Below are positions 18,360 through 62,833 of a stretch of 64,000 bases of DNA, in pieces. The DNA is taken from NCBI GenBank assembly GCA_947624995.1, contig CANQMS010000004.1, positions 2,139-66,138 of the forward strand, read 5' to 3'. The notes beneath the pieces are model-generated. The model did no database searches. It saw only the letters and a list, made by a program, of their open reading frames with translations, and was not told the origin of the DNA. Numbering within the stretch: position 1 is the first letter of the stretch; each line of letters starts with the position of its first letter. The stretch is from an uncultured Clostridia bacterium. GTDB lineage: Bacteria > Bacillota > Clostridia > Oscillospirales > CAG-272. A program made the position numbers and the translations under genes.

Positions 18360-18448
18360 GGAGAAGTCGCCTAGTTGGTCGAGGGCGCGCGACTGGAAAT
18401 CGCGTAACCGCCAAAAACGGTTCAAGAGTTCGAATCTCTTCTTCTCCG
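18360..18448 (+). tRNA. tRNA-Ser (anticodon GGA), CCA not encoded
   Basis: Hand-folded cloverleaf: acceptor GGAGAAG/CTTCTCC, anticodon stem CGCGA/TCGCG with loop CTGGAAA, long variable arm AACCG/CGGTT, T-arm AAGAG-TTCGAAT-CTCTT. Confidence 0.9.
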
Positions 18449-53003: not shown

Positions 53004-54032
53004 TTATATCGAGTCCGCAATCTCGTAAACGAGCCGCTCCGTCTTCTCCCAGCCGAGGCACGGGTCCGTGATAGACTTGCCGTAGACGCACTCGCCTATT
53101 TTCTGCGCGCCGTCCTCGATATAGCTCTCGATCATGAACCCGCGGAAGAGCTTCTTTACATCGGGATTTATGCGGCAGGAGTGCAGCACCTCGCGGACGA
53201 TGCGCGGCTGCTCCGTATACACCTTGCCGGAGTTCGCGTGATTCGTGTCGACGATCAGCGCGGGATTCGAAAGACCGCTCTCCGCGTACGTTTCCGCGAG
53301 GCGGCAGAGGTCCTCGTAGTGATAGTTCGGGTGCGTCTGCCCGTATGTGTCGACGTACCCGCGCAAGATCGCGTGCGCGTACGGGTTGCCCTGCGAATGG
53401 ACCTCCCAGCCGCGGTAGAGAAAAGTGTGCTTGTGCTGTGCCGCCGTTATCGCGTTCATCATGACGGAGATGTCCCCTCCTGTCGGGTTCTTCATTCCGA
53501 CCGGGATCAGAAGTCCGCTCGCCGTCAGCCTGTGCTGCTGGTTCTCGACGGAGCGCGCGCCGACCGCGACGTATGCGAGAATATCGTTTAAATACCTGTG
53601 ATCCTCCGGGTAGAGCATCTCGTCCGCGCACGAATATCCCGTCTCCCGGAGAGCGCGCATATGGATGCCGCGTATCGCGAGGATGCCCTTGTACATATCC
53701 GGCTTTTCGTTCGGGTTCGGCTGGTGGAGCATACCCTTGTAGCCGTCGCCCGTCGTGCGCGGCTTGTTCGTGTATATCCTCGGGATGAAAAAAATCTTGT
53801 CCCCGACCTTGTCTTCAAGGCGGCGCAGCCGAGTGACGTAATCTATCACGCTGTCTTCGTTGTCCGCAGAGCACGGTCCGATTATGAGTATCAGCTTGTC
53901 GTTTTTGCCCTCGAAAATATCCCGCAGCTCGGCGGCGCGCGCCGCGACGTTTGCGGTGTCCTCCTCGGATATCGGAAACAGCTTTTTTACCTCTTGCGGT
54001 ATAGGCAGCTTCCGCTCGAAAATCATGTTCAT
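53004..54032 (-). CDS. 3-deoxy-7-phosphoheptulonate (DAHP) synthase, class I-alpha (AroF/G/H-like)
   Basis: LILIIGPCSADNEDS ... RIYTNKPRTTGDGYKGMLHQP aligns with E. coli AroG-type enzymes. Confidence 0.9.
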   Translation of the reverse strand: MNMIFERKLPIPQEVKKLFPISEEDTANVAARAAELRDIFEGKNDKLILIIGPCSADNEDSVIDYVTRLRRLEDKVGDKIFFIPRIYTNKPRTTGDGYKGMLHQPNPNEKPDMYKGILAIRGIHMRALRETGYSCADEMLYPEDHRYLNDILAYVAVGARSVENQQHRLTASGLLIPVGMKNPTGGDISVMMNAITAAQHKHTFLYRGWEVHSQGNPYAHAILRGYVDTYGQTHPNYHYEDLCRLAETYAESGLSNPALIVDTNHANSGKVYTEQPRIVREVLHSCRINPDVKKLFRGFMIESYIEDGAQKIGECVYGKSITDPCLGWEKTERLVYEIADSI

Positions 54033-54052
54033 GTTCTATCCTGTCCCCCGGG

Positions 54053-54910
54053 TCACTTTTTGTCAAATTTCGCGCGGCGCTCGGTCGAGTGGCGCATCAT
54101 CTCGCGCATCCCCGCCTCATCTCCCGCCGATATCATATTCCGCAGCTTTAAAAACTGCGCCGAGAACATATCCATCTGCCGCAAAAGCGCGTCCTTGTTC
54201 GCGAGGAAAAGCTCGCTCCACATCAGGTCGTTTATCCGCGCGATGCGCGTCAGGTCTCGGAACGAGTCCCCGGTGAAGCGCTCTATATGCTCTTCCTCAT
54301 TGCACGTCATCAGCGCGACGGCTATGCAGTGCGTAAGCTGCGAGACGAACCCGATCATCTCGTCGTGCTCCTCGGGCGACAGCTCGGCGACGTTTGAAAA
54401 CCCGAGCAACAGTCCGAGCTCGCGGCACGTCTCGACGGCGTCGCGCGTGTTCTTCTCGGTCGGGGTGACGATGTAGTTCGCTCCGGCAAAAATGCGGGAT
54501 GTGCTGTTTTCTACGCCGTAGACCTCCCGCCCCGCCATCGGGTGCGCGGCGATGAACTCGACGTCCGGGCGGAGCATCTCCTGCACGCGGTAAACGACCG
54601 AGCACTTGACGCCCGTGACATCGGTCAGCAGCGCGCCGGGCTTCAGGTATTTCTGATTTTCCTCTATCCAATCAATGAAAATGTGCGGATAAAGCGCGAA
54701 GACGACAAGGTCGGCGCGGGCGATCATATCGGGGTCAATGCCTTCGGCGCCTTCGTCTATGATGCCGCGTTCGAGCGCGTAGTCTATCGAGCTTTGACGG
54801 CGCGTCAGCGCGCCGACGTGGAACCCGTACCGGTGGAGCGCCTCGGCGTAGCTGCCGCCGAGCAGCCCGAGCCCGACTATGAGTATATTTTTTCGGACGT
54901 CGATTATCAT
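54053..54910 (-). CDS. tyrA: Prephenate dehydrogenase
   Basis: Rossmann motif ILIVGLGLLGGSYA plus the AAHPMAG motif. Confidence 0.88.
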   Translation of the reverse strand: MIIDVRKNILIVGLGLLGGSYAEALHRYGFHVGALTRRQSSIDYALERGIIDEGAEGIDPDMIARADLVVFALYPHIFIDWIEENQKYLKPGALLTDVTGVKCSVVYRVQEMLRPDVEFIAAHPMAGREVYGVENSTSRIFAGANYIVTPTEKNTRDAVETCRELGLLLGFSNVAELSPEEHDEMIGFVSQLTHCIAVALMTCNEEEHIERFTGDSFRDLTRIARINDLMWSELFLANKDALLRQMDMFSAQFLKLRNMISAGDEAGMREMMRHSTERRAKFDKK

Positions 54911-54927
54911 TTTGTCTCTTACCTTTC

Positions 54928-56130
54928 TTATTCCGTTATCTTGACCTTTGCCCCGAGCGACCGTATCGCGTCAAAGTATGACGGGTAGCTCTTGCGGACG
55001 TCCTCGCAGCCGAAGATCTCGCCGCCCGTCACAGTCAAAAGCGTCGAGAGCGCCATGACGACGCGGTGGTCGTTGTGACTGCGCAGCGGCTCCGTCGGCG
55101 GCGATATCCCGCCGCCGGGGACCGAGATCGAGTTCTCGCCGACGTCGATGCGGACGCCGAATTTAAGGAGCTCCTCCGCCATCGCGGCGCCCCTGTCCGA
55201 CTCCTTCACCGCAAGTCTTTTCGTTCCCGTGAACGCCGCGCCGTGCAGGCACGCAGAAAGCGCGATGAGTACGGGGGCGAGATCGGGCGTGTCCGAGAGG
55301 TCGATCACGGGGGAACCCGCCGCAAGCATCTTATAATATTCGCGGTAGGCGGCGTCGCCCTGTGCGCTCGCCTCGGGGAGTCCCGTCACCGTCACGTCCC
55401 CGCCCAAAAGACCGAACGCGTCAAGGAATGCGGCGTTTGAGAAGTCGCCCTCGACCTCGCCCGACCACGGGCGGAGGCGCTGCCCCTCCGTGAGCGTGAT
55501 ATCGTTCCCGCGGAATTTTATATCCGCCCCGAACAGTCCGAGCGCTGCCGCCGTCATCTCCGCATACGGGCGGCTTTCAAACGGCGGCAGAACATGTATC
55601 TCCCCGCCGCCGAGACGTGCAAGCGCGAACATGAGTCCCGTCACAAACTGCGAGCTTATGCTGCCGTCTACGGCAAATTTCTTTTTAGGCAGTTTGCCTA
55701 ACACTGTTATGCATCCGCCTTTTTTGACGAATGTGATAGAATTCTCCGCCGCGATCCGCTCGTATACATCGAGCGGTCGCGCAAGCAGCCGTTCGCTGCC
55801 GGTAAAGGTCACCGTCTCTCCCGTCAGCATCGCAAGCGGGATGAAAAAGCGGAGCGTGCTGCCGCTCTCGCGGCAGTCAAGCACCCCTTTGACCTCGGAG
55901 AGGAACCGGGTACCGTCAATTTTGACGGTCGAGCCGCACCTTTCGATCTCGGCGCCGAGTGCCTCGGCGCAGTCCAGTGTTGCCGAAATATCCTCGGAAT
56001 ACTCAACTCCGGCGATGACGCTCTCGCCCTCCGCGAGCGACGCCGCGATCAGCAGCCTGTGCGCCGCGCTCTTTGACGGCGGCGCCTTTACCATGCCCGA
56101 AAGGCGTGATTTTTCAAATATTGCTCTCAT
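54928..56130 (-). CDS. aroA: 3-phosphoshikimate 1-carboxyvinyltransferase (EPSP synthase)
   Basis: KAPPSKSAAHRLLIAASLAEG; full-length EPSPS-like. The start ATG at 56130 overlaps the aroQ stop (ATGA). Confidence 0.92.
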   Translation of the reverse strand: MRAIFEKSRLSGMVKAPPSKSAAHRLLIAASLAEGESVIAGVEYSEDISATLDCAEALGAEIERCGSTVKIDGTRFLSEVKGVLDCRESGSTLRFFIPLAMLTGETVTFTGSERLLARPLDVYERIAAENSITFVKKGGCITVLGKLPKKKFAVDGSISSQFVTGLMFALARLGGGEIHVLPPFESRPYAEMTAAALGLFGADIKFRGNDITLTEGQRLRPWSGEVEGDFSNAAFLDAFGLLGGDVTVTGLPEASAQGDAAYREYYKMLAAGSPVIDLSDTPDLAPVLIALSACLHGAAFTGTKRLAVKESDRGAAMAEELLKFGVRIDVGENSISVPGGGISPPTEPLRSHNDHRVVMALSTLLTVTGGEIFGCEDVRKSYPSYFDAIRSLGAKVKITE

Positions 56131-56558
56131 TTCAGCTTGTCCGCAAGGTACTGTATCGCTAAAAGATACCCGTCCGTACCCTTGCCGATGACGGATTTTT
56201 CGCACGCCATCCCCGCGTAGCTGATGCGGCGGAACGGCTCGCGCACGTTCACGTCCGAGATGTGGACCTCGACCGCCGGGAGCGACACCGCCTTGAGCGC
56301 GTCAAGTATCGCGACGCTCGTGTGCGTGTACGCCGCCGGGTTTATGACGATCCCGTCGAACGCCCCGTAGGCTGCCTGTATCTTGTCCACGAGATCCCCT
56401 TCATGGTTCGACTGATAGATCTCGACCTCGACGCCGATATTTTCGGCATATGTCTTTATTTTTAGGCATATGTCTTTATACGTTTCCCTGCCGTATATAT
56501 CAGGCTCGCGTATGCCGAGCATATTCAGATTAGGTCCGTTTATGACGAGCAGCTTCAT
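56127..56558 (-). CDS. aroQ: Type II 3-dehydroquinate dehydratase
   Basis: MKLLVINGPNLNMLGIREPDIYG ... NPAAYTHTSVA. Confidence 0.93.
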   Translation of the reverse strand: MKLLVINGPNLNMLGIREPDIYGRETYKDICLKIKTYAENIGVEVEIYQSNHEGDLVDKIQAAYGAFDGIVINPAAYTHTSVAILDALKAVSLPAVEVHISDVNVREPFRRISYAGMACEKSVIGKGTDGYLLAIQYLADKLK

Positions 56559-57796
56559 GATTTTCCGTGCTCCCTTATTATCGTTTTTGCGTTCCACAGG
56601 CGGTCGTCCCGCATCCTTATCGTGACGTCCGCCGTGCCGGTGTATATTCCGTACCGCTCGCGGTACCGTGCGCGCACCGCGTCCGCATCACGCGCGAGCG
56701 GGCGGTCAGATGTCGGCGTCAGCCATTCTATCGGGCGGTCGAGATAATATATGCGCCCGTTCTGCTTCAGTAGGCGGACGTTTTCATCCCGCAGCACAGC
56801 GCCGCCGCCCGTCGCGATGACGCAGCCGTGCCGGCTCGCGATATCCGCTATCACCTCGGACTCGCGGTCGCGGAACGCATCCTCGCCGTATTTTTCAAAA
56901 TAGTCCGCGATCTTCATCCCGATCCGGGAGACTATCTCCGCGTCCGTATCTATGAGCCGCCGCCCGGTCATGGACGCGATCTTGCGCCCGGTCGCCGATT
57001 TACCCGAGCCGGGCATCCCGGTGAGCACGATATTCTGCTTGTCGCGGTACAGCTCGCGGTAAATTCGCCCGGCAAGCTCCTGCCCGAGGCTCTCCCCGGT
57101 GAAGTGCTCCGCCGCAAAGACAGCCTGTGAGACGAGCATATAAAGCCCTCCGACCGCCTTTATCCCGCGCTCGCGCGCCGCCATAACAAGGCGCGTCCGA
57201 AGGGGATTGTATACGGCGTCAACGACGCCGGAAAGGCGCGGGAAACCGCCTATATCTATCGGCATCCCGGCTATATCCGGGTACATCCCCGATGGCGTCG
57301 TGTTTATTATTATATCCGCATCCGAATGGATCCTGCACGCCTCGTCGTATGTCACGGCCCCGTCACGCCCCGTGCGGCTGACGGTGACGGTCGTCCTCGC
57401 GCCGAGCAGGCGCAAAAGCTCCCGCGCCGTGTGAGACGTGCCGCCCGTGCCGAGTACGAGCACTTTTTTGCCGCGGATCCCGATCCCCGCAGAGGATATC
57501 ATCGCCCGCATACCGGGCAGGTCCGTGTTGAAGCCGCAGAGCTCACCGCCGCGGTTGACGACGGTGTTGACCGCGCCTATTCTGCGCGCGTCGTCATCCA
57601 TTCGGGACAGATACGGTATCACGTCACGCTTATAGGGGATCGTCACGTTTATACCGAGAAAATCGCGCGCGGTCATAAATCTGTCGAGCTCACCGCGCGG
57701 CACCTCGCAGAGCTCGTATTCGTAGAGCCCTATTTTTTCGTGGATCTCTCGGGAAAAGCTGTGTCCGAGCCGCTCCGCTATGCATCCGTACTTCAT
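56555..57796 (-). CDS. Bifunctional shikimate dehydrogenase / shikimate kinase fusion
   Basis: The N-terminal AroE part has GINVTIPYK, NTVV and GFNTD. The C-terminal AroK part has the P-loop LTGMPGSGKSATG and DTD. Confidence 0.9.
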   Translation of the reverse strand: MKYGCIAERLGHSFSREIHEKIGLYEYELCEVPRGELDRFMTARDFLGINVTIPYKRDVIPYLSRMDDDARRIGAVNTVVNRGGELCGFNTDLPGMRAMISSAGIGIRGKKVLVLGTGGTSHTARELLRLLGARTTVTVSRTGRDGAVTYDEACRIHSDADIIINTTPSGMYPDIAGMPIDIGGFPRLSGVVDAVYNPLRTRLVMAARERGIKAVGGLYMLVSQAVFAAEHFTGESLGQELAGRIYRELYRDKQNIVLTGMPGSGKSATGRKIASMTGRRLIDTDAEIVSRIGMKIADYFEKYGEDAFRDRESEVIADIASRHGCVIATGGGAVLRDENVRLLKQNGRIYYLDRPIEWLTPTSDRPLARDADAVRARYRERYGIYTGTADVTIRMRDDRLWNAKTIIREHGKS

Positions 57797-58884
57797 CGCG
57801 TCTCACCGAAATAATCAGTCCCGAAGCGCTCTTCGAGCATATCCGCGACCGCGATCGCCGTCACCGCGTCGACGACGGCGCGAGCCCTGTGTACAACAGC
57901 CGGGTCGTGCCGCCCTCGGAGCTCGAGCACCGCCTCTTCATGTTTCAATATATCGACCGTCTTCTGCGGCTTGAATATGGACGGGGTCGGCTTGACCGCC
58001 GTGCGGAAAACTATCGGCATGCCGCTCGAAATTCCGCCGTTTATCCCGCCGCTGTTGTTCGTCTCCGTCACGACCACACCGCCCGACAGGGAGAGCGCGT
58101 CGTTGCACTCGCTGCCGCGCATATCTGCGGCATCAAAGCCCGCGCCGAACTCTATTCCCTTTACCGCCGGGACCGAGAACACCGCGTGCGCGATGACGCC
58201 CTCGAGCGTGTCGAACCACGGCTCGCCGACGCCCGCCGGAACGCCGACCACCGCCGTCTCGAGCACACCGCCGACGCTGTCTCCCTCGGCGGCGGCAGAC
58301 TCTATCAGAGCCCTCATTCGCTCGCCCGCGCCCTCGTTGAGCACGGCGAAAGTCTTTTCATTTAAAATACCGATTTCCCGGGAAATATCCGAAAACGGCG
58401 CGTCGTCTACCCCGGCGCAGCGCGCGATATGCGTACCGATGATGATCCCGCGTGAGGCGAGCGCCCCCTTCACGATCGCGCCGACGGCGACGAGCGCCGC
58501 CGTGATCCTGCCGCTGAAGTGACCGCCGCCGCGGTAGTCTTCGAATCCGTGGTATTTTACAAAGCCCGTGTAGTCGGCGTGCCCCGGGCGCGGCAGACCG
58601 CGCGAGTAATCGGAGCTCTTCGTGTCCCCGTTCGGGATAATGACCGCGATCGGCGTGCCCGTCGTCATCCCCTCAAAGACGCCGCTGACGATCTCGAACC
58701 TGTCCGCCTCGACGCGGGTCGTTGAAATCCTGCCCGCCGGGCGGCGCTTTTCGAGCTCGCGTGCGACGGACGCCTCATCGACTCTTACCCCAGGGGATAG
58801 CCCGTCGAGTACGGCGCCGATATATTTTCCGTGGCTCTCGCCGAAAAGCGTCACCGAAACGCAGTTGCCGAATGTGTTTTTCAT
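57793..58884 (-). CDS. aroC: Chorismate synthase
   Basis: FGESHGKYIGAVLDGLSPG ... RPGHADY ... RHDP. Confidence 0.94.
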   Translation of the reverse strand: MKNTFGNCVSVTLFGESHGKYIGAVLDGLSPGVRVDEASVARELEKRRPAGRISTTRVEADRFEIVSGVFEGMTTGTPIAVIIPNGDTKSSDYSRGLPRPGHADYTGFVKYHGFEDYRGGGHFSGRITAALVAVGAIVKGALASRGIIIGTHIARCAGVDDAPFSDISREIGILNEKTFAVLNEGAGERMRALIESAAAEGDSVGGVLETAVVGVPAGVGEPWFDTLEGVIAHAVFSVPAVKGIEFGAGFDAADMRGSECNDALSLSGGVVVTETNNSGGINGGISSGMPIVFRTAVKPTPSIFKPQKTVDILKHEEAVLELRGRHDPAVVHRARAVVDAVTAIAVADMLEERFGTDYFGETR

Positions 58885-59903
58885 ATCCTATTTTCCCTTA
58901 TATAGTCGGTCAGCCTCGCCCTGAGCATATCCGGGCTGAGATGCTCGAACCGAAACTCTCCAATCCTCTCGACGATGACGACCGTGACGCCCCCGCCGTC
59001 CGACTTTTTGTCGTGGAGCGCGGCGGCGATGACGCGGTCGACGTCATAGTCATACTCCGCCCTCAACCCGAGCCTTGAATAGACGCCCAAAAGCCTTGCC
59101 CTCACCGTTTCCGAGCACATCGGCAGCATTCCGAGCGCCACGCACTCGCCGTGGCAGAGCCCGTGGAGTTCTTCCTCCGCCTCGATCCCGTGCCCTATCG
59201 TGTGCCCGAAATTGAGGACGCGGCGCAGCCCGCCCTCGCGCTCGTCCGCCTCGACGACGCGCTTTTTTATCGCAACGGAGCGCGCGATGAGCTCTTCGAG
59301 CGAGGAGGATATATCGCACGTCTCAAACATTGAAAACAGCTCTCCGTCAAGCGCTGCCGCCATTTTCACCGCCTCCGCGAGCCCTGCCGCCATCTGCCTT
59401 TCGGGCAGCGTCGCGAGCACGTCCGGGTCGACGAGCACGCGCCTCGGCTGATAGAACGCGCCGACGACGTTTTTTATGCCGCCGAGATTGACTGCGGTCT
59501 TTCCCCCGACCGACGAATCTATCTGTGAGAGCGACGTCGTCGGGATATTGTAAAAGTCTACGCCGCGCATATATGCGGACGCGGCGAACCCCGAAAGATC
59601 GCCGACAACGCCGCCGCCGACGGCGACGACGCAGTCGCGGCGGGTAAATCCGTGCGCCAGCATTTCACCGAGGAGCTCCTCGAACCGCCGGATGCTCTTG
59701 CTCCCCTCCCCCTGCGGGACGGTAACTTTGACCGGCTCGCGGCAGACGGCGGCGACGCGGTCCGCATACTGCTCCGGCACGCCGTCATCCGTCACGATGA
59801 GGACGCGCCGGTCGAGGTCGAGATACTCCCCGGCGCGCGCCGAGCAGCCGCGCTCGACGATTATATCGTAGCTCCTCTCACCGAGATCGAGCGTGAGCTT
59901 CAC
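58881..59903 (-). CDS. aroB: 3-dehydroquinate synthase
   Basis: VAVGGGVVGDLSGFAASAYMRGVDFYNIPTTSLSQIDSSVGGKTAVN. Confidence 0.93.
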   Translation of the reverse strand: MKLTLDLGERSYDIIVERGCSARAGEYLDLDRRVLIVTDDGVPEQYADRVAAVCREPVKVTVPQGEGSKSIRRFEELLGEMLAHGFTRRDCVVAVGGGVVGDLSGFAASAYMRGVDFYNIPTTSLSQIDSSVGGKTAVNLGGIKNVVGAFYQPRRVLVDPDVLATLPERQMAAGLAEAVKMAAALDGELFSMFETCDISSSLEELIARSVAIKKRVVEADEREGGLRRVLNFGHTIGHGIEAEEELHGLCHGECVALGMLPMCSETVRARLLGVYSRLGLRAEYDYDVDRVIAAALHDKKSDGGGVTVVIVERIGEFRFEHLSPDMLRARLTDYIRENRI

Positions 59904-60988
59904 AGCCTTGCCTCCCCGTCATATCCGCCGACGACCTTCAGCCTGTCGCAAACCTCGGAAAGCGCCGCGAGCATGTCCTCGCCCGCCTCGCCGTCCGGGC
60001 TGCCCTCCGCCTCGATATAGAAATAATACTGCCATGCGAGCTCCTTCATCGGGTGCGAGCGCAGCACATTCATGTTGAAGCCGTGCTCTCCGATGATGCT
60101 TATCGCCCTCGCGAGCGCTCCGGCGGCGTTTTTGACCGTGAACATCAAAATGAAGCTGCCGCCTGTTTTCCGCCCCGTCTCCTTCGCACCGGAGAAAACG
60201 GCAAACCGCGTCGTGTTCGTGTTGCTGTCGTTTATGTCGTGGTCAAGGACGACGAGGTGATAGAGCTCCGCCGTCTCCTCGCTCGCAATAGCCGCCGTGT
60301 GTAAGTCTCCGCTCTCGGCGACGGCGCGTGCCGCAATGGCGGTGTTTGTCGTCTCAACCTGTACAAATCCGTGCTTTTTTATGTAGTTCTCGCACTGCGA
60401 CAGCGCCTGCGGGTGAGATATGACCGTCTCTATCTCCGAAAGGACCGCTCCCTCCGGCGCGAGCAGATGATGCGTCACCGGAAGGTCGTAAACGCCGTTG
60501 ACATAGAGAGGTCCCGAAAACATCAGATCGAGCACCTGCCCGACCTCGCCGGCATAGCTGTTCTCTATCGGCAGAACGGCGCAGTCGCACTCGCCGCGCC
60601 CGACAGATTCGTACGCCGCGTGAAAGCTGCTGTACGAAACAGCATCCCCGTCCGGGAAGATGCGGCGCGCGGCAATGTTCGCGAACGCACCGGGCACGCC
60701 GCAGTACGCGACGCGCATCCCGGAGAGCAGCCGCTTCTGGTACTGCTTTGAAATGTCCATGACGGACTGCAAAAACAGCTTGTAGTAAAGCGCGAGCGAT
60801 GGATCGCCGATGCGCGCCGAGCCCGCCTCAAGGACCGCCGCCTCGCGCCCCGCGTCAAAGACGGGCAGCCCGTGCGCGCGCTTGTATTCGGCAACGTCCG
60901 CCGCCGCCTTCATCCTCCGGCGGAAAAGCTCCGCCATCTCCCCGTCTATCTCGTCAATGCGGGCTCTCGCCTCCGCAAGCTTTTCCAT
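59900..60988 (-). CDS. pheA: Bifunctional chorismate mutase / prephenate dehydratase (P-protein) with an ACT domain
   Basis: CM helix RARIDEIDGEMAELFRRRM. PDT part VAYCGVPGAFANIAA ... LPIENSYAGEV ... TRF. The start was moved to the ATG at 60988. Confidence 0.9.
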   Translation of the reverse strand: MEKLAEARARIDEIDGEMAELFRRRMKAAADVAEYKRAHGLPVFDAGREAAVLEAGSARIGDPSLALYYKLFLQSVMDISKQYQKRLLSGMRVAYCGVPGAFANIAARRIFPDGDAVSYSSFHAAYESVGRGECDCAVLPIENSYAGEVGQVLDLMFSGPLYVNGVYDLPVTHHLLAPEGAVLSEIETVISHPQALSQCENYIKKHGFVQVETTNTAIAARAVAESGDLHTAAIASEETAELYHLVVLDHDINDSNTNTTRFAVFSGAKETGRKTGGSFILMFTVKNAAGALARAISIIGEHGFNMNVLRSHPMKELAWQYYFYIEAEGSPDGEAGEDMLAALSEVCDRLKVVGGYDGEARL

Positions 60989-60999
60989 AATTCCCCCAC

Positions 61000-61041
61000 A
61001 AAAAAACATCCGCCGCCTTTGCACGACAAACGGCGGTGGAT
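61000..61041 (-). terminator. Leader (attenuator) terminator immediately 5' of pheA
   Basis: The minus strand reads ATCCACCGCC-N14-GGCGGCGGAT (9 of 10 bp) followed by GTTTTTTTG, just upstream of the pheA SD. Confidence 0.7.
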
Positions 61042-61071
61042 GCTGTTTTTACCTTTTTGTGACCTGTTCGG

Positions 61072-61149
61072 TCACTCGGTCGGCAAAATGTCGCAGTCCA
61101 TCGCGCGCGTCATATAAAAATAAAAGCAGCCCGTGCGAAAGCGCGGCAT
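61072..61149 (-). CDS. Candidate Phe/Tyr-rich leader peptide (25 aa, MPRFRTGCFYFYMTRAMDCDILPTE)
   Basis: My own translation. An AAGAGGT SD lies 8 nt upstream. The ORF has 3 Phe and 2 Tyr, including a contiguous FYFY block, and sits between the promoter and the leader terminator. Confidence 0.6.
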   Translation of the reverse strand: MPRFRTGCFYFYMTRAMDCDILPTE

Positions 61150-61182
61150 GATCCCGTACCTCTTTTTTCAATGTTTTCATAT

Positions 61183-61211
61183 ATTATATCGGACGTGCCG
61201 CCGTTTGTCAA
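61183..61211 (-). promoter_or_regulatory. Consensus sigma-A promoter of the aromatic amino-acid operon
   Basis: The minus strand reads TTGACA-17 nt-TATAAT. Confidence 0.7.
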
Positions 61212-61324
61212 GCGTTTCCGCAAAAAAAGAGAAGAATGCCGGACGGGGTGCTGCCGAGAGAAAAACGGGCGGGAGCCGTCCGATTTTTCTCGGCTCAAAA
61301 TCGGCGTCTTTTTTCGCGCGCTTA

Positions 61325-61353
61325 TTGCAATCCGCCCGGGATTTATGTATAAT
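61325..61353 (+). promoter_or_regulatory. Sigma-A-type promoter of miaB
   Basis: TTGCAA-17 nt-TATAAT. Confidence 0.6.
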
Positions 61354-61405
61354 ATAGATTGTATGATTTTGTCCGCGCGAGCGGTTTTACGGTATTCTTA
61401 AGACT

Positions 61406-62833
61406 ATGGATAAAAGGCAAAACAATCTGATACCGCCCGCCGCATCTTCGTCGATGCTGTCGTCGATCCGTTCCGTGCGCGAGCTGACGGACGGGATGCG
61501 GGCACGGGGGATCAGCCCGAAATTCTATATCATGACGTTCGGCTGCCAGCAGAACGAGGCGGACAGCGAACGGCTCGCCGGATTTGCCGATGCGATGGGA
61601 TATAAGCCGTCGCATGTGCCGGACGGCTGCTCGCTCATCCTCGTCAACACGTGCGCCGTCCGTGAGCACGCCGAAAAAAAGGCGCTTTCATGCATCGGTC
61701 AGCTCAAGCACATAAAGGCGGCGGACCCGTCCGTCATCATCGGCGTCGGCGGCTGCATGGTGTCGCAGCAGCACAGGGCGGACGCGCTCAAGCACAGCTA
61801 CCCCTACGTCGACTTCTCGTTCTGCACGACGGAGCTTTGGCGCGTGCCGGAGCTCATCCTTGACCGTCTGCGCGGAGGTCGCCGCCGCTTTCCGGACGTT
61901 GCGGCGTCACTTTCCTCGACCGATTTTTCCGAGGAGGTGCCGGTCCTGCGCCGGTCGCGGACGCGCGCGTGGGTCAGCGTCATGTACGGCTGCAACAACT
62001 TCTGTTCGTACTGCATCGTCCCGTACGTCCGCGGGCGCGAGCGCTCGCGGCTGCCGGAGGACATCCTCTCCGAGGTGCGCGGCCTTGTCGGCGGCGGCTG
62101 CCGCGACATAACGCTGCTCGGGCAGAACGTCAATTCATACGGTCACGACCTCGACTCGGGCGTCACCTTCGCCGACCTCATCCGCGAGATATCGCGCCTT
62201 GACGGCGACTTTCGCCTGCGCTTTATGACCTCGCACCCGAAGGACGCGACCGACGACCTCATCGCCGCCATAGCGGAGAGCCGCGTCGCGTCCCGCCACT
62301 TTCATCTGCCGCTGCAATCCGGCAGCGACCGCGTGCTCGCCGTCATGAACAGGCACTACACCGCCGAAAAATACCTCGGCATCATCGAAAAGCTCCGCGC
62401 CGCGATGCCGGATATCGTCATCACATCGGACATAATGGTCGGCTTTCCCGGCGAGACGGAGGACGATTTCGCCGCCACGCTCGGCGTCATGCGCCGCGCT
62501 CGATTCGACATGATATATTCCTTCATCTTCTCTCCCCGCCGCGGCACGCCTGCCGCCCGGATGGCGGAGCAGATCCCGGAGGACGTCAAGTCGGAGCGGT
62601 TCGCGCGCCTGATAGAGTGCCAGAACGCGATATCGAGGGAGAAAAACGAATCCGCCGTCGGACAGACGCTCCGCGTGCTCGCGGACGACGGTTTCGATGA
62701 CCCCGCCGACCCGACCGGGCGCACGGACGGAAACAAGCTCGTCCACATCCGCGGGGAGGCGATCCCGGGCGAATTTTACAGCGTCAAAATTACCCGTGCC
62801 GATACTTTCGGTCTTTACGGGGACATAATATAA
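61406..62833 (+). CDS. miaB: tRNA (i6A37) methylthiotransferase
   Basis: FYIMTFGCQQNEADSE (UPF0004), radical SAM CNNFCSYCIVPYVRGRERS, and a TRAM C-terminus. Confidence 0.92.
   Translation: MDKRQNNLIPPAASSSMLSSIRSVRELTDGMRARGISPKFYIMTFGCQQNEADSERLAGFADAMGYKPSHVPDGCSLILVNTCAVREHAEKKALSCIGQLKHIKAADPSVIIGVGGCMVSQQHRADALKHSYPYVDFSFCTTELWRVPELILDRLRGGRRRFPDVAASLSSTDFSEEVPVLRRSRTRAWVSVMYGCNNFCSYCIVPYVRGRERSRLPEDILSEVRGLVGGGCRDITLLGQNVNSYGHDLDSGVTFADLIREISRLDGDFRLRFMTSHPKDATDDLIAAIAESRVASRHFHLPLQSGSDRVLAVMNRHYTAEKYLGIIEKLRAAMPDIVITSDIMVGFPGETEDDFAATLGVMRRARFDMIYSFIFSPRRGTPAARMAEQIPEDVKSERFARLIECQNAISREKNESAVGQTLRVLADDGFDDPADPTGRTDGNKLVHIRGEAIPGEFYSVKITRADTFGLYGDII

Follow-up and report, generated by a model that had tools for sequence, protein, structure and literature searches.

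What controls the aromatic amino-acid operon that begins with pheA in an uncultured Clostridia bacterium (assembly GCA_947624995.1, contig CANQMS010000004.1, positions 2,139 to 66,138)? We analyzed this stretch of 64,000 nucleotides, called the window below, and in particular the segment 61211-60988 just ahead of pheA; all leader coordinates refer to the minus strand of the 64-kb window. A previous sequence-only reading had noticed here a short open reading frame (ORF) with Phe and Tyr codons followed by a terminator. Our analysis makes it very likely that this leader is a ribosome-mediated, leader-peptide transcription attenuator which senses both Phe and Tyr and controls the operon from pheA to the 3-deoxy-D-arabino-heptulosonate 7-phosphate (DAHP) synthase gene. 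Its predicted elements and the operon are the following.

61183-61211, minus strand: sigma-70-type promoter, TTGACA (61211-61206), a 17-nt spacer and TATAAT (61188-61183), matching at 12 of 12 positions.
61158-61164, minus strand: leader Shine-Dalgarno sequence (SD) AAGAGGU, with an 8-nt spacer to the AUG.
61072-61149, minus strand: leader ORF of 25 codons plus UGA, ATG at 61149 and UGA at 61074-61072, encoding the peptide MPRFRTGCFYFYMTRAMDCDILPTE.
61114-61125, minus strand: putative regulatory codons UUU UAU UUU UAU (F9 Y10 F11 Y12), as read from the sequence; an additional UUU (F4) lies at 61140-61138.
61078-61160, minus strand: P1, the predicted anti-antiterminator hairpin; its 5' arm comprises the end of the SD, the AUG and region 1 (CUUUCGC, 61141-61135), its 3' arm region 2 and CUGCGACAUUUUGCCGACC.
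61097-61104, minus strand: region 2, GCGAUGGA, encoding Ala-Met-Asp and forming the 5' strand of the antiterminator basal helix.
61033-61040, minus strand: region 3, UCCACCGC, common to the antiterminator (with region 2) and to the terminator 5' arm (with region 4).
61031-61106, minus strand: predicted antiterminator hairpin of 76 nt, whose basal helix pairs regions 2 and 3 (2:3) and which encloses the UGA stop (61074-72).
61000-61043, minus strand: intrinsic terminator, a stem-loop (61043-61006/7) followed by U7 (61006-61000).
60992-60997, minus strand: pheA SD, GGGGGA, with the pheA ATG at 60988.
53004-60997, minus strand: operon pheA-aroB-aroC-aroE-aroK fusion-aroQ-aroA-tyrA-DAHP synthase, with pheA at 60988-59900 and the DAHP synthase gene ending at 53004.

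The perfect promoter and the SD-preceded ORF with its FYFY run were both read exactly where the sequence-only reading had placed them. Promoter-like sites number 3 in the 2-kb region, compared to 0.8 expected. Transcription would start at about 61176, and the leader RNA would then measure about 175 nt up to the terminator end, which lies 11 nt before the pheA ATG. The features that define an attenuator are found in this arrangement: a short, SD-preceded ORF that follows the promoter and precedes the first gene, a cluster of cognate codons, and a terminator before the first structural gene. When the whole window was scanned on both strands for an SD, a short ORF, an amino-acid run and a terminator, only the leader ORF and one Ser-rich match, probably spurious, were recovered.

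Pfam analysis bears out the aromatic content previously proposed for the operon. The encoded proteins are a chorismate mutase-prephenate dehydratase, 3-dehydroquinate synthase, chorismate synthase, a shikimate dehydrogenase-shikimate kinase fusion, type II dehydroquinase, 5-enolpyruvylshikimate 3-phosphate (EPSP) synthase, prephenate dehydrogenase and DAHP synthase. The genes, from 60988 to 53004, are abutting, tightly packed or overlapping, and comprise the Phe and Tyr branch enzymes with no Trp genes. Codon choice in these genes favors UUC over UUU (58:35) and UAC over UAU (58:37); the leader uses UUU and UAU only.

If the leader peptide matters, an aromatic-rich micro-ORF should recur in related genomes. 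Relatives were collected by a PheA protein search, keeping one genome per species, which gave 80 loci, nearly all from Oscillospiraceae, Acutalibacteraceae, Ruminococcus or unclassified Clostridia metagenome-assembled genomes; the closest one by this search is a rabbit-gut Clostridia genome (96% identity). An automated criterion was then applied to the 450 nt upstream of pheA, asking for a short ORF in which at least 4 of 6 codons specify Phe or Tyr (F/Y) and which has a terminator behind it. This arrangement was found at 33 of the 80 related loci, with 3 further loci recognized by inspection. Counting the 80 loci and the window, an F/Y-run short ORF is present upstream of pheA in 34/81, compared to a mean of 4.3 (~5%) in mononucleotide shuffles and 15/81 in the reverse-complement control. 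In many of the leaderless loci, pheA lies directly behind an aminotransferase-like gene, so that the control region presumably lies elsewhere. In 16 of them (L028, L033, L035, L037, L043, L046, L052, L054-L060, L071 and L075; 420 nt inspected), pheA starts a few nt after the upstream gene, which by eye encodes an aminotransferase with a C-terminus like ...SYCV...FKKLAEEY. In these 16 loci, pheA is an internal operon gene without a leader of its own.

The window and 16 relatives share the same architecture, and we refer to these 17 sequences as class 1. A promoter of the form TTGAC(A/T)...TAnnnT is present in 16/17, ending 18-40 nt (mostly 28-33) before the leader ATG, and each of the 17 carries an SD-like AAGG or GAGG 7-12 nt upstream of the start codon. 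At one class-1 locus lacking the TTGACA promoter (L074, 2739-2812, plus strand), a tRNA gene ends immediately before the leader SD, and this leader may be transcribed together with the tRNA or be processed out of its transcript. The class-1 ORFs have 15-30 codons, and their F/Y runs differ in order and in synonymous codon. The distance from ATG to region 2 is 36, 39, 42 or 45 nt, a multiple of 3 throughout. Over the 17 leaders we counted 50 UUU, 10 UUC, 37 UAU, 23 UAC and no UGG, a content which matches an operon for Phe and Tyr enzymes without Trp genes. Both the sequence and the length of the micro-ORF vary among relatives while the F/Y richness persists. Outside the F/Y run the peptide is poorly conserved, and the residual conservation follows RNA pairing: the most conserved leader motif is GCGAUGGA (Ala-Met-Asp), and the terminator 5' arm contains (U)CCACCGC. 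Altogether, the SD, the in-frame spacing, the alternation of UUU with UUC and of UAU with UAC, and the shuffled F/Y order signal that the leader ORF is translated.

Is there an RNA switch that such translation could act on? The GC-rich stem and U7 previously described ahead of the pheA SD form a strong terminator (-22.6 kcal/mol, z -4.98, none of 200 shuffles as good), and a hairpin with a U-run occupies this position in 17/17 class-1 sequences (L066 corrected by hand). The proposal that GCGAUGGA (61104-61097) could pair with UCCACCGC (61040-61033) at 7 of 8 positions also held: the helix, GCG-A-UGGA with UCCA-C-CGC, contains a single A.C mismatch and is kept in register in all 17 class-1 sequences, with compensatory changes. 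When a 16-nt window around region 2 was compared with everything downstream, the best duplex fell on or beside the terminator 5' arm in 17/17. For the window and L001, this best duplex uses a second register, deeper in the terminator stem. The alternative pairing of GCGCGCGAUGGAC with the terminator loop GUUUGUCGUGC (-17.8 kcal/mol in the window) was set aside as secondary because it was seen in close relatives only.

Covariation of the 2:3 helix was tested on an anchored, fixed-length block alignment, since a full-length MAFFT alignment had aligned regions 2 and 3 and scrambled the terminator 3' arms. In these blocks 79% of cells are paired, compared to 26-57% after the partner is shifted along by 1-3 columns, and the covariation score was matched by 2 of 500 shuffles. 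Three pairs are altered on both sides, in three lineages: the L024 group (G>U opposite C>A), L005 (C>A opposite G>U) and L074 (G>A opposite C>U). We regard this support from the alignment as moderate but consistent.

The 2:3 helix is the base of a much longer structure. Folded alone, the hairpin 61106-61031 reaches -30.1 kcal/mol (z -5.88, none of 200 shuffles as good). Its inner helices are CUG/CAG, UUUUGCC (61088-82) with GGUAAAA (61053-47), and GUGACC (61075-70) with GGUCAC (61064-59), the last of these (hairpin 61075-59) enclosing the leader UGA. The sequence-only reading had described the UGA hairpin nested in an outer stem; both are indeed present, not as separate accessories but, according to the folds, as inner helices of a single antiterminator. 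All 15 class-1 sequences that we folded, two near-duplicates being left aside, form such an extended hairpin between regions 2 and 3 around the stop codon, even though their inner sequences differ. Its z scores range from -1.6 to -5.7, in 11/15 at most 1 of 200 shuffles equals it, and its energies are similar to or stronger than those of the terminators.

In the minimum-energy fold of the full-length leader (-61.6 kcal/mol), P1 (61160-61078) coexists with the stop-codon hairpin and the terminator, and the F/Y codons are positioned in the P1 apical loop. The P1 3' arm includes sequence that the antiterminator uses in its inner 5' strands, and the P1 and antiterminator folds are therefore predicted to be mutually exclusive. 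The arms of P1 co-vary among 14 non-redundant class-1 sequences: cognate arms pair at a mean of -14.6 kcal/mol versus -10.0 kcal/mol for non-cognate arms, a difference that none of 5000 permutations reached. RNAalifold, run on MAFFT-aligned P1 regions, returned no consensus structure, because length variation displaces the arms, and was therefore replaced by per-sequence folds and the duplex test. Over 61106-61000, the ON and OFF folds are 2.1 kcal/mol apart. Masking the F/Y codons as if by a ribosome gave 2:3 as the minimum-energy structure in nearly all class-1 sequences.

These structures suggest the following switch. In the OFF fold, P1 (61160-61078), the stop-codon hairpin and the terminator (61043-61006) with its U7 would coexist; in the ON fold, the 76-nt antiterminator (61106-61031) would form, region 2 taking up the terminator 5' arm. 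When Phe-tRNA or Tyr-tRNA is scarce, the ribosome would stall at UUU UAU UUU UAU (61125-61114). With codons 9-12 in its A site it would cover approximately 61140-61102, that is, region 1 and at most the first base of region 2. Because the stalled footprint covers region 1, P1 would be blocked, the antiterminator could form once region 3 has been transcribed, and RNA polymerase would enter pheA. When both tRNAs are charged, the ribosome would pass region 2 and reach the UGA inside the antiterminator. There it would unwind and occupy the antiterminator 5' strand while regions 3 and 4 are made, and for this reason the terminator would form. Without translation, P1 would form first, sequestering region 2 together with the leader SD and AUG, and the terminator would again follow. 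An antiterminator that excludes the terminator is found in the sequence and in the folds, while we infer the steric and kinetic part of the switch. For the anti-antiterminator (1:2), P1 is present in the full-length fold and its arms co-vary, but its z score in the window is unremarkable and truncated folds often give 2:3.

Several observations weigh against this mechanism. The P1 hairpin of the window (-25.9 kcal/mol, z -0.63) is no better than shuffled sequence. Equilibrium folds of the truncated transcript still give 2:3 without any ribosome, in the window and 9/16 other class-1 sequences, and also with a ribosome at the stop codon, in the window and 6/16 others. The folding under ribosome constraints suggested by the sequence-only reading thus agreed with the proposal for the stalled ribosome, whereas the ribosome-free and at-stop states were not separated for the window. 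Because equilibrium folds give 2:3 even in the absence of a stalled ribosome, the models imply that kinetics or steric effects must decide between the folds. With the antiterminator formed, the remaining terminator sequence can still refold in a shifted register into a G.U-rich hairpin of 10 bp (61032-61007, approximately -11.5 kcal/mol) that abuts U7, through which antitermination may be incomplete, leaving a floor of residual termination in the ON state. The independent covariation events in the 2:3 helix are few, and the count of doubly changed pairs was equalled in 43 of 500 shuffles. Chorismate made by the operon also feeds Trp, yet the leader has no Trp codon. Finally, in Bacillus subtilis RNA polymerase leaves the lead ribosome behind (Johnson et al. 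2020, as cited in PMC9226507). Should the present organism behave like B. subtilis, sensing by a ribosome would need polymerase pausing.

Does the RNA motif predict its codons and its genes when neither is used to find it? We scanned metagenome contigs for GCGATGGA-N(32-62)-CCACCGC-N(20-45)-TTTTTT, a motif blind to ORFs and genes, and obtained at least 120 matching stretches. Among the matches listed, 5 carry at least 6 F/Y in the 16 in-frame codons before the motif, and exactly those 5 have a pheA homologue 41-62 nt downstream (tblastn E <=1e-139), compared to 0 of the 115 others listed. These other 115 listed matches are mostly chance.

Two metagenome contigs, L115 (minus strand; leader ~4903-4797, genes ~4775-3030) and L152 (3100-3311, plus strand), carry a class-1-like leader with Phe codons only. 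Their promoter, SD, and GCGATGGA...CCACCGC plus terminator layout are the same, and their peptides, MRIHAILQLNTFSFSFTRAMDRCIWPN and MIRRPIGQLNSFGFSFTRAMDRCII, contain an alternating FSFSF or FGFSF before RAMDRCI. Downstream sequence is available for L115 only; it encodes a homologue of PaaK-like phenylacetate-CoA ligase (TIGR02155, 512 bits, under the cutoff of 646) and an ACT-pair protein. The L115 leader may be a Phe-specific attenuator on a phenylacetate-to-phenylalanine route. Codon content thus appears to track the pathway, F plus Y before the pheA-tyrA operon and F alone before the phenylacetate-CoA-ligase-like gene.

A second leader class occurs upstream of pheA in Ruminococcus-type genomes (L011, L014, L016-L019, L021-L023, L026, L029, L041, L044, L048, L049 and L063), with peptides like ...F.FARFYAGFYC... 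and a conserved nucleotide block, GCGCGCUUUUAUGCGGGCUUUUAUUGC. Its terminator is GCGGUUCUG...CAGAGCCGC, and apart from an F/Y run and a terminator it shares little with class 1. The stop codon lies just before a segment able to pair with the F/Y-coding region or with the terminator, and several of these loci have 150-260 nt of extra sequence between terminator and pheA. Two genomes labelled Treponema (L050 and L064) have a third, F-rich leader type, MNTNTFAFFSFEAFSFYYFSKNG.AR, and a terminator at about 130-250 nt ahead of a pheA whose product is 56-58% identical to the window PheA. Horizontal transfer or mis-binning could explain these two.

Could the same terminator and antiterminator serve another kind of regulation? 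A trans-acting protein or a small ligand might switch the two structures through GCGAUGGA/CCACCGC, the ORF being incidental or a by-product of a U/A-rich loop. Protein-mediated attenuation, as with TRAP or PyrR, is common in Firmicutes, the two motifs are the most conserved stretches of the leader, and equilibrium folds alone need no ribosome for the choice of state. We consider this explanation improbable, since the coding signatures would then be left over: SD and ATG in 17/17, a multiple-of-3 spacing through four lengths, C as a variant at third positions only, and an F/Y order that is shuffled while the amino-acid class is preserved. The structurally different Ruminococcus-type class also has an F/Y run and a terminator, the Phe-only sibling precedes a phenylacetate-CoA-ligase-like gene, and conservation of the two motifs is accounted for by their mutual pairing with compensatory changes. 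The leader contains no known aptamer or TRAP site; where such a site has nine to eleven (G/U)AG triplets 2-3 nt apart, the 192-nt leader has two, none in series. A simpler possibility, that a constitutive leader has a leaky terminator, or that its short transcript is a small RNA (sRNA) or micropeptide gene without any amino-acid sensing, agrees with a promoter and terminator that would yield a transcript of about 175 nt. It is still less probable: the peptide outside the F/Y run is poorly conserved, the position immediately upstream of pheA is fixed across dozens of genomes, and a conserved, exclusive antiterminator has no role in a simple sRNA gene.

T-boxes are the usual regulators of Firmicutes aromatic amino-acid genes (PMC1262725), and one is present in L010 (1589-1839), a relative of the leaderless kind with an aminotransferase-like gene before pheA; it lies about 1.2 kb upstream of pheA and ahead of that preceding gene. 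That the sequence-only reading missed a T-box or another catalogued riboswitch or leader in the window is nevertheless hardly credible. Rfam 15 at gathering thresholds gave no leader, T-box or riboswitch in the whole window, no family was matched at the leaders of 18 related loci, and the T-box consensus is absent from the window leader and from 80/80 related upstream regions. A cmscan of 60900-61420 at E up to 10 returned only four chance-level, non-leader matches, with both Phe_leader (which we take to be RF01859) and RF01743 unmatched; the chance similarities to enterobacterial sRNAs (E 0.9-8) reflect the terminator only. In addition, a leader of about 175 nt with a 78-nt ORF leaves no space for a specifier loop and Stem I. 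The absence of any known riboswitch or T-box by covariance model, left to be verified by the sequence-only reading, was in this way confirmed, and leader-peptide attenuation sensing Phe and Tyr remains our preferred explanation. In effect, the leader would be a new family, uncatalogued in Rfam 15, of a known mechanism class.

Attenuation by a leader peptide had been called uncommon in Firmicutes, and it is, but precedents exist. Predictions have been made of His leaders for the Bacillus cereus group, for Peptostreptococcaceae and for Erysipelotrichales (PMC9413887); a Leu/phe leader, RF01743, is known from Lactococcus lactis (PMC2864571). In earlier surveys of Firmicutes, the emphasis for tyrosine and for aminoacyl-tRNA synthetases was on T-boxes (PMC1262725). 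Our literature search found no Phe/Tyr leader in Clostridia; most subscription journals were outside this search, and a prior prediction is possible. The His leaders and RF01743 share with the window leader the phylum, the mechanism class and their identification by comparative genomics (short ORF, codon run, terminator plus antiterminator); they concern another amino acid or family, whereas the window family extends across many Oscillospirales-type genomes with at least two structural classes. A T-box (RF00230) likewise converts tRNA charging into a choice between terminator and antiterminator, but it senses uncharged tRNA by direct RNA-tRNA pairing, while in the window leader a translated ORF would be the sensor.

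The closest known counterparts are the gamma-proteobacterial Phe leaders of E. coli, pheL-pheA and pheM-pheST (PMC3082878), which also combine a Phe-codon leader ORF, a terminator and an antiterminator, with ribosome position deciding. Unlike pheL, to which it has no similarity by sequence or covariance model, the window leader has a mixed Phe and Tyr run, heads eight genes with tyrA and the common pathway among them where pheL controls pheA alone, belongs to an Oscillospirales-type Clostridia host, and has its stop codon deep within a long antiterminator hairpin. As in E. coli trpL, we predict three exclusive pairings, with codons just upstream of region 2, termination as the predicted default without translation, and close ON and OFF energies. 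In contrast to trpL, the codons of the window leader are placed in the predicted P1 apical loop and not inside region 1, P1 would also sequester the leader SD and AUG, and the antiterminator is a 76-nt multi-helix structure stronger than the terminator (-30.1 versus -22.6 kcal/mol). Multivalent leaders are known from E. coli, where ilvGMEDA has Leu, Val and Ile codons and thr has Thr and Ile codons. The window leader resembles them in that one peptide would sense several amino acids matching the operon products, here Phe and Tyr, a pair for which the literature that we covered gave no example.

Taken together with the other leader types, we lean, though only slightly, towards seeing the window leader as the type example of a widespread set of Phe plus Tyr attenuators, with at least two structural classes and a Phe-only sibling, which occupies the niche expected for T-boxes in Oscillospirales-type gut and rumen genomes. 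This would be an apparently undescribed regulatory RNA family for the main aromatic operon of abundant, mostly uncultured gut and rumen Clostridia. It would help annotation and Rfam, and microbiome models could use it to predict Phe/Tyr prototrophy and how this is regulated. Classical attenuation requires that the lead ribosome pace RNA polymerase, which is doubted in Firmicutes since runaway transcription was described in B. subtilis. If our interpretation is true, translation of the nascent leader steers RNA polymerase in this Firmicutes lineage, by functional coupling or by programmed pausing, contrasting with the runaway transcription of B. subtilis, and the family would offer natural reporters for coupling or pausing in Clostridia. 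The match between leader codons and pathway would illustrate the evolutionary retuning of leader peptides, and the compact, modular design, with codons in the loop of a start-sequestering P1 and the stop in the antiterminator, could be a possible Phe/Tyr biosensor.

The surroundings of the leader were also inspected. MiaB completes the 2-methylthio-N6-isopentenyladenosine modification at position 37 (ms2i6A37) of UNN-reading tRNAs, tRNA-Phe and tRNA-Tyr among them, and the divergent neighbour of the leader (61406-62833, plus strand) is MiaB (TIGR01574, 459 bits versus a cutoff of 355). The gene is next to the leader only in the two closest relatives (L001 and L002). A functional link between miaB and the leader was set aside given this limited adjacency, which is probably a coincidence. 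A near-perfect long palindrome, GCCGAGAGAAAAACGGGCGGGAGCCGTCCGATTTTTCTCGGC (61251-61296, both strands), separates the divergent promoters of miaB and the leader, at some 40 nt before the leader -35. It scored as a terminator-like site and as a chance mir-787 match, and may be an operator, a repeat element or what is left of a bidirectional terminator. The sole Rfam match at gathering threshold in the window is an 89-nt long-arm tRNA (18360-18448, plus strand), unrelated to the leader.

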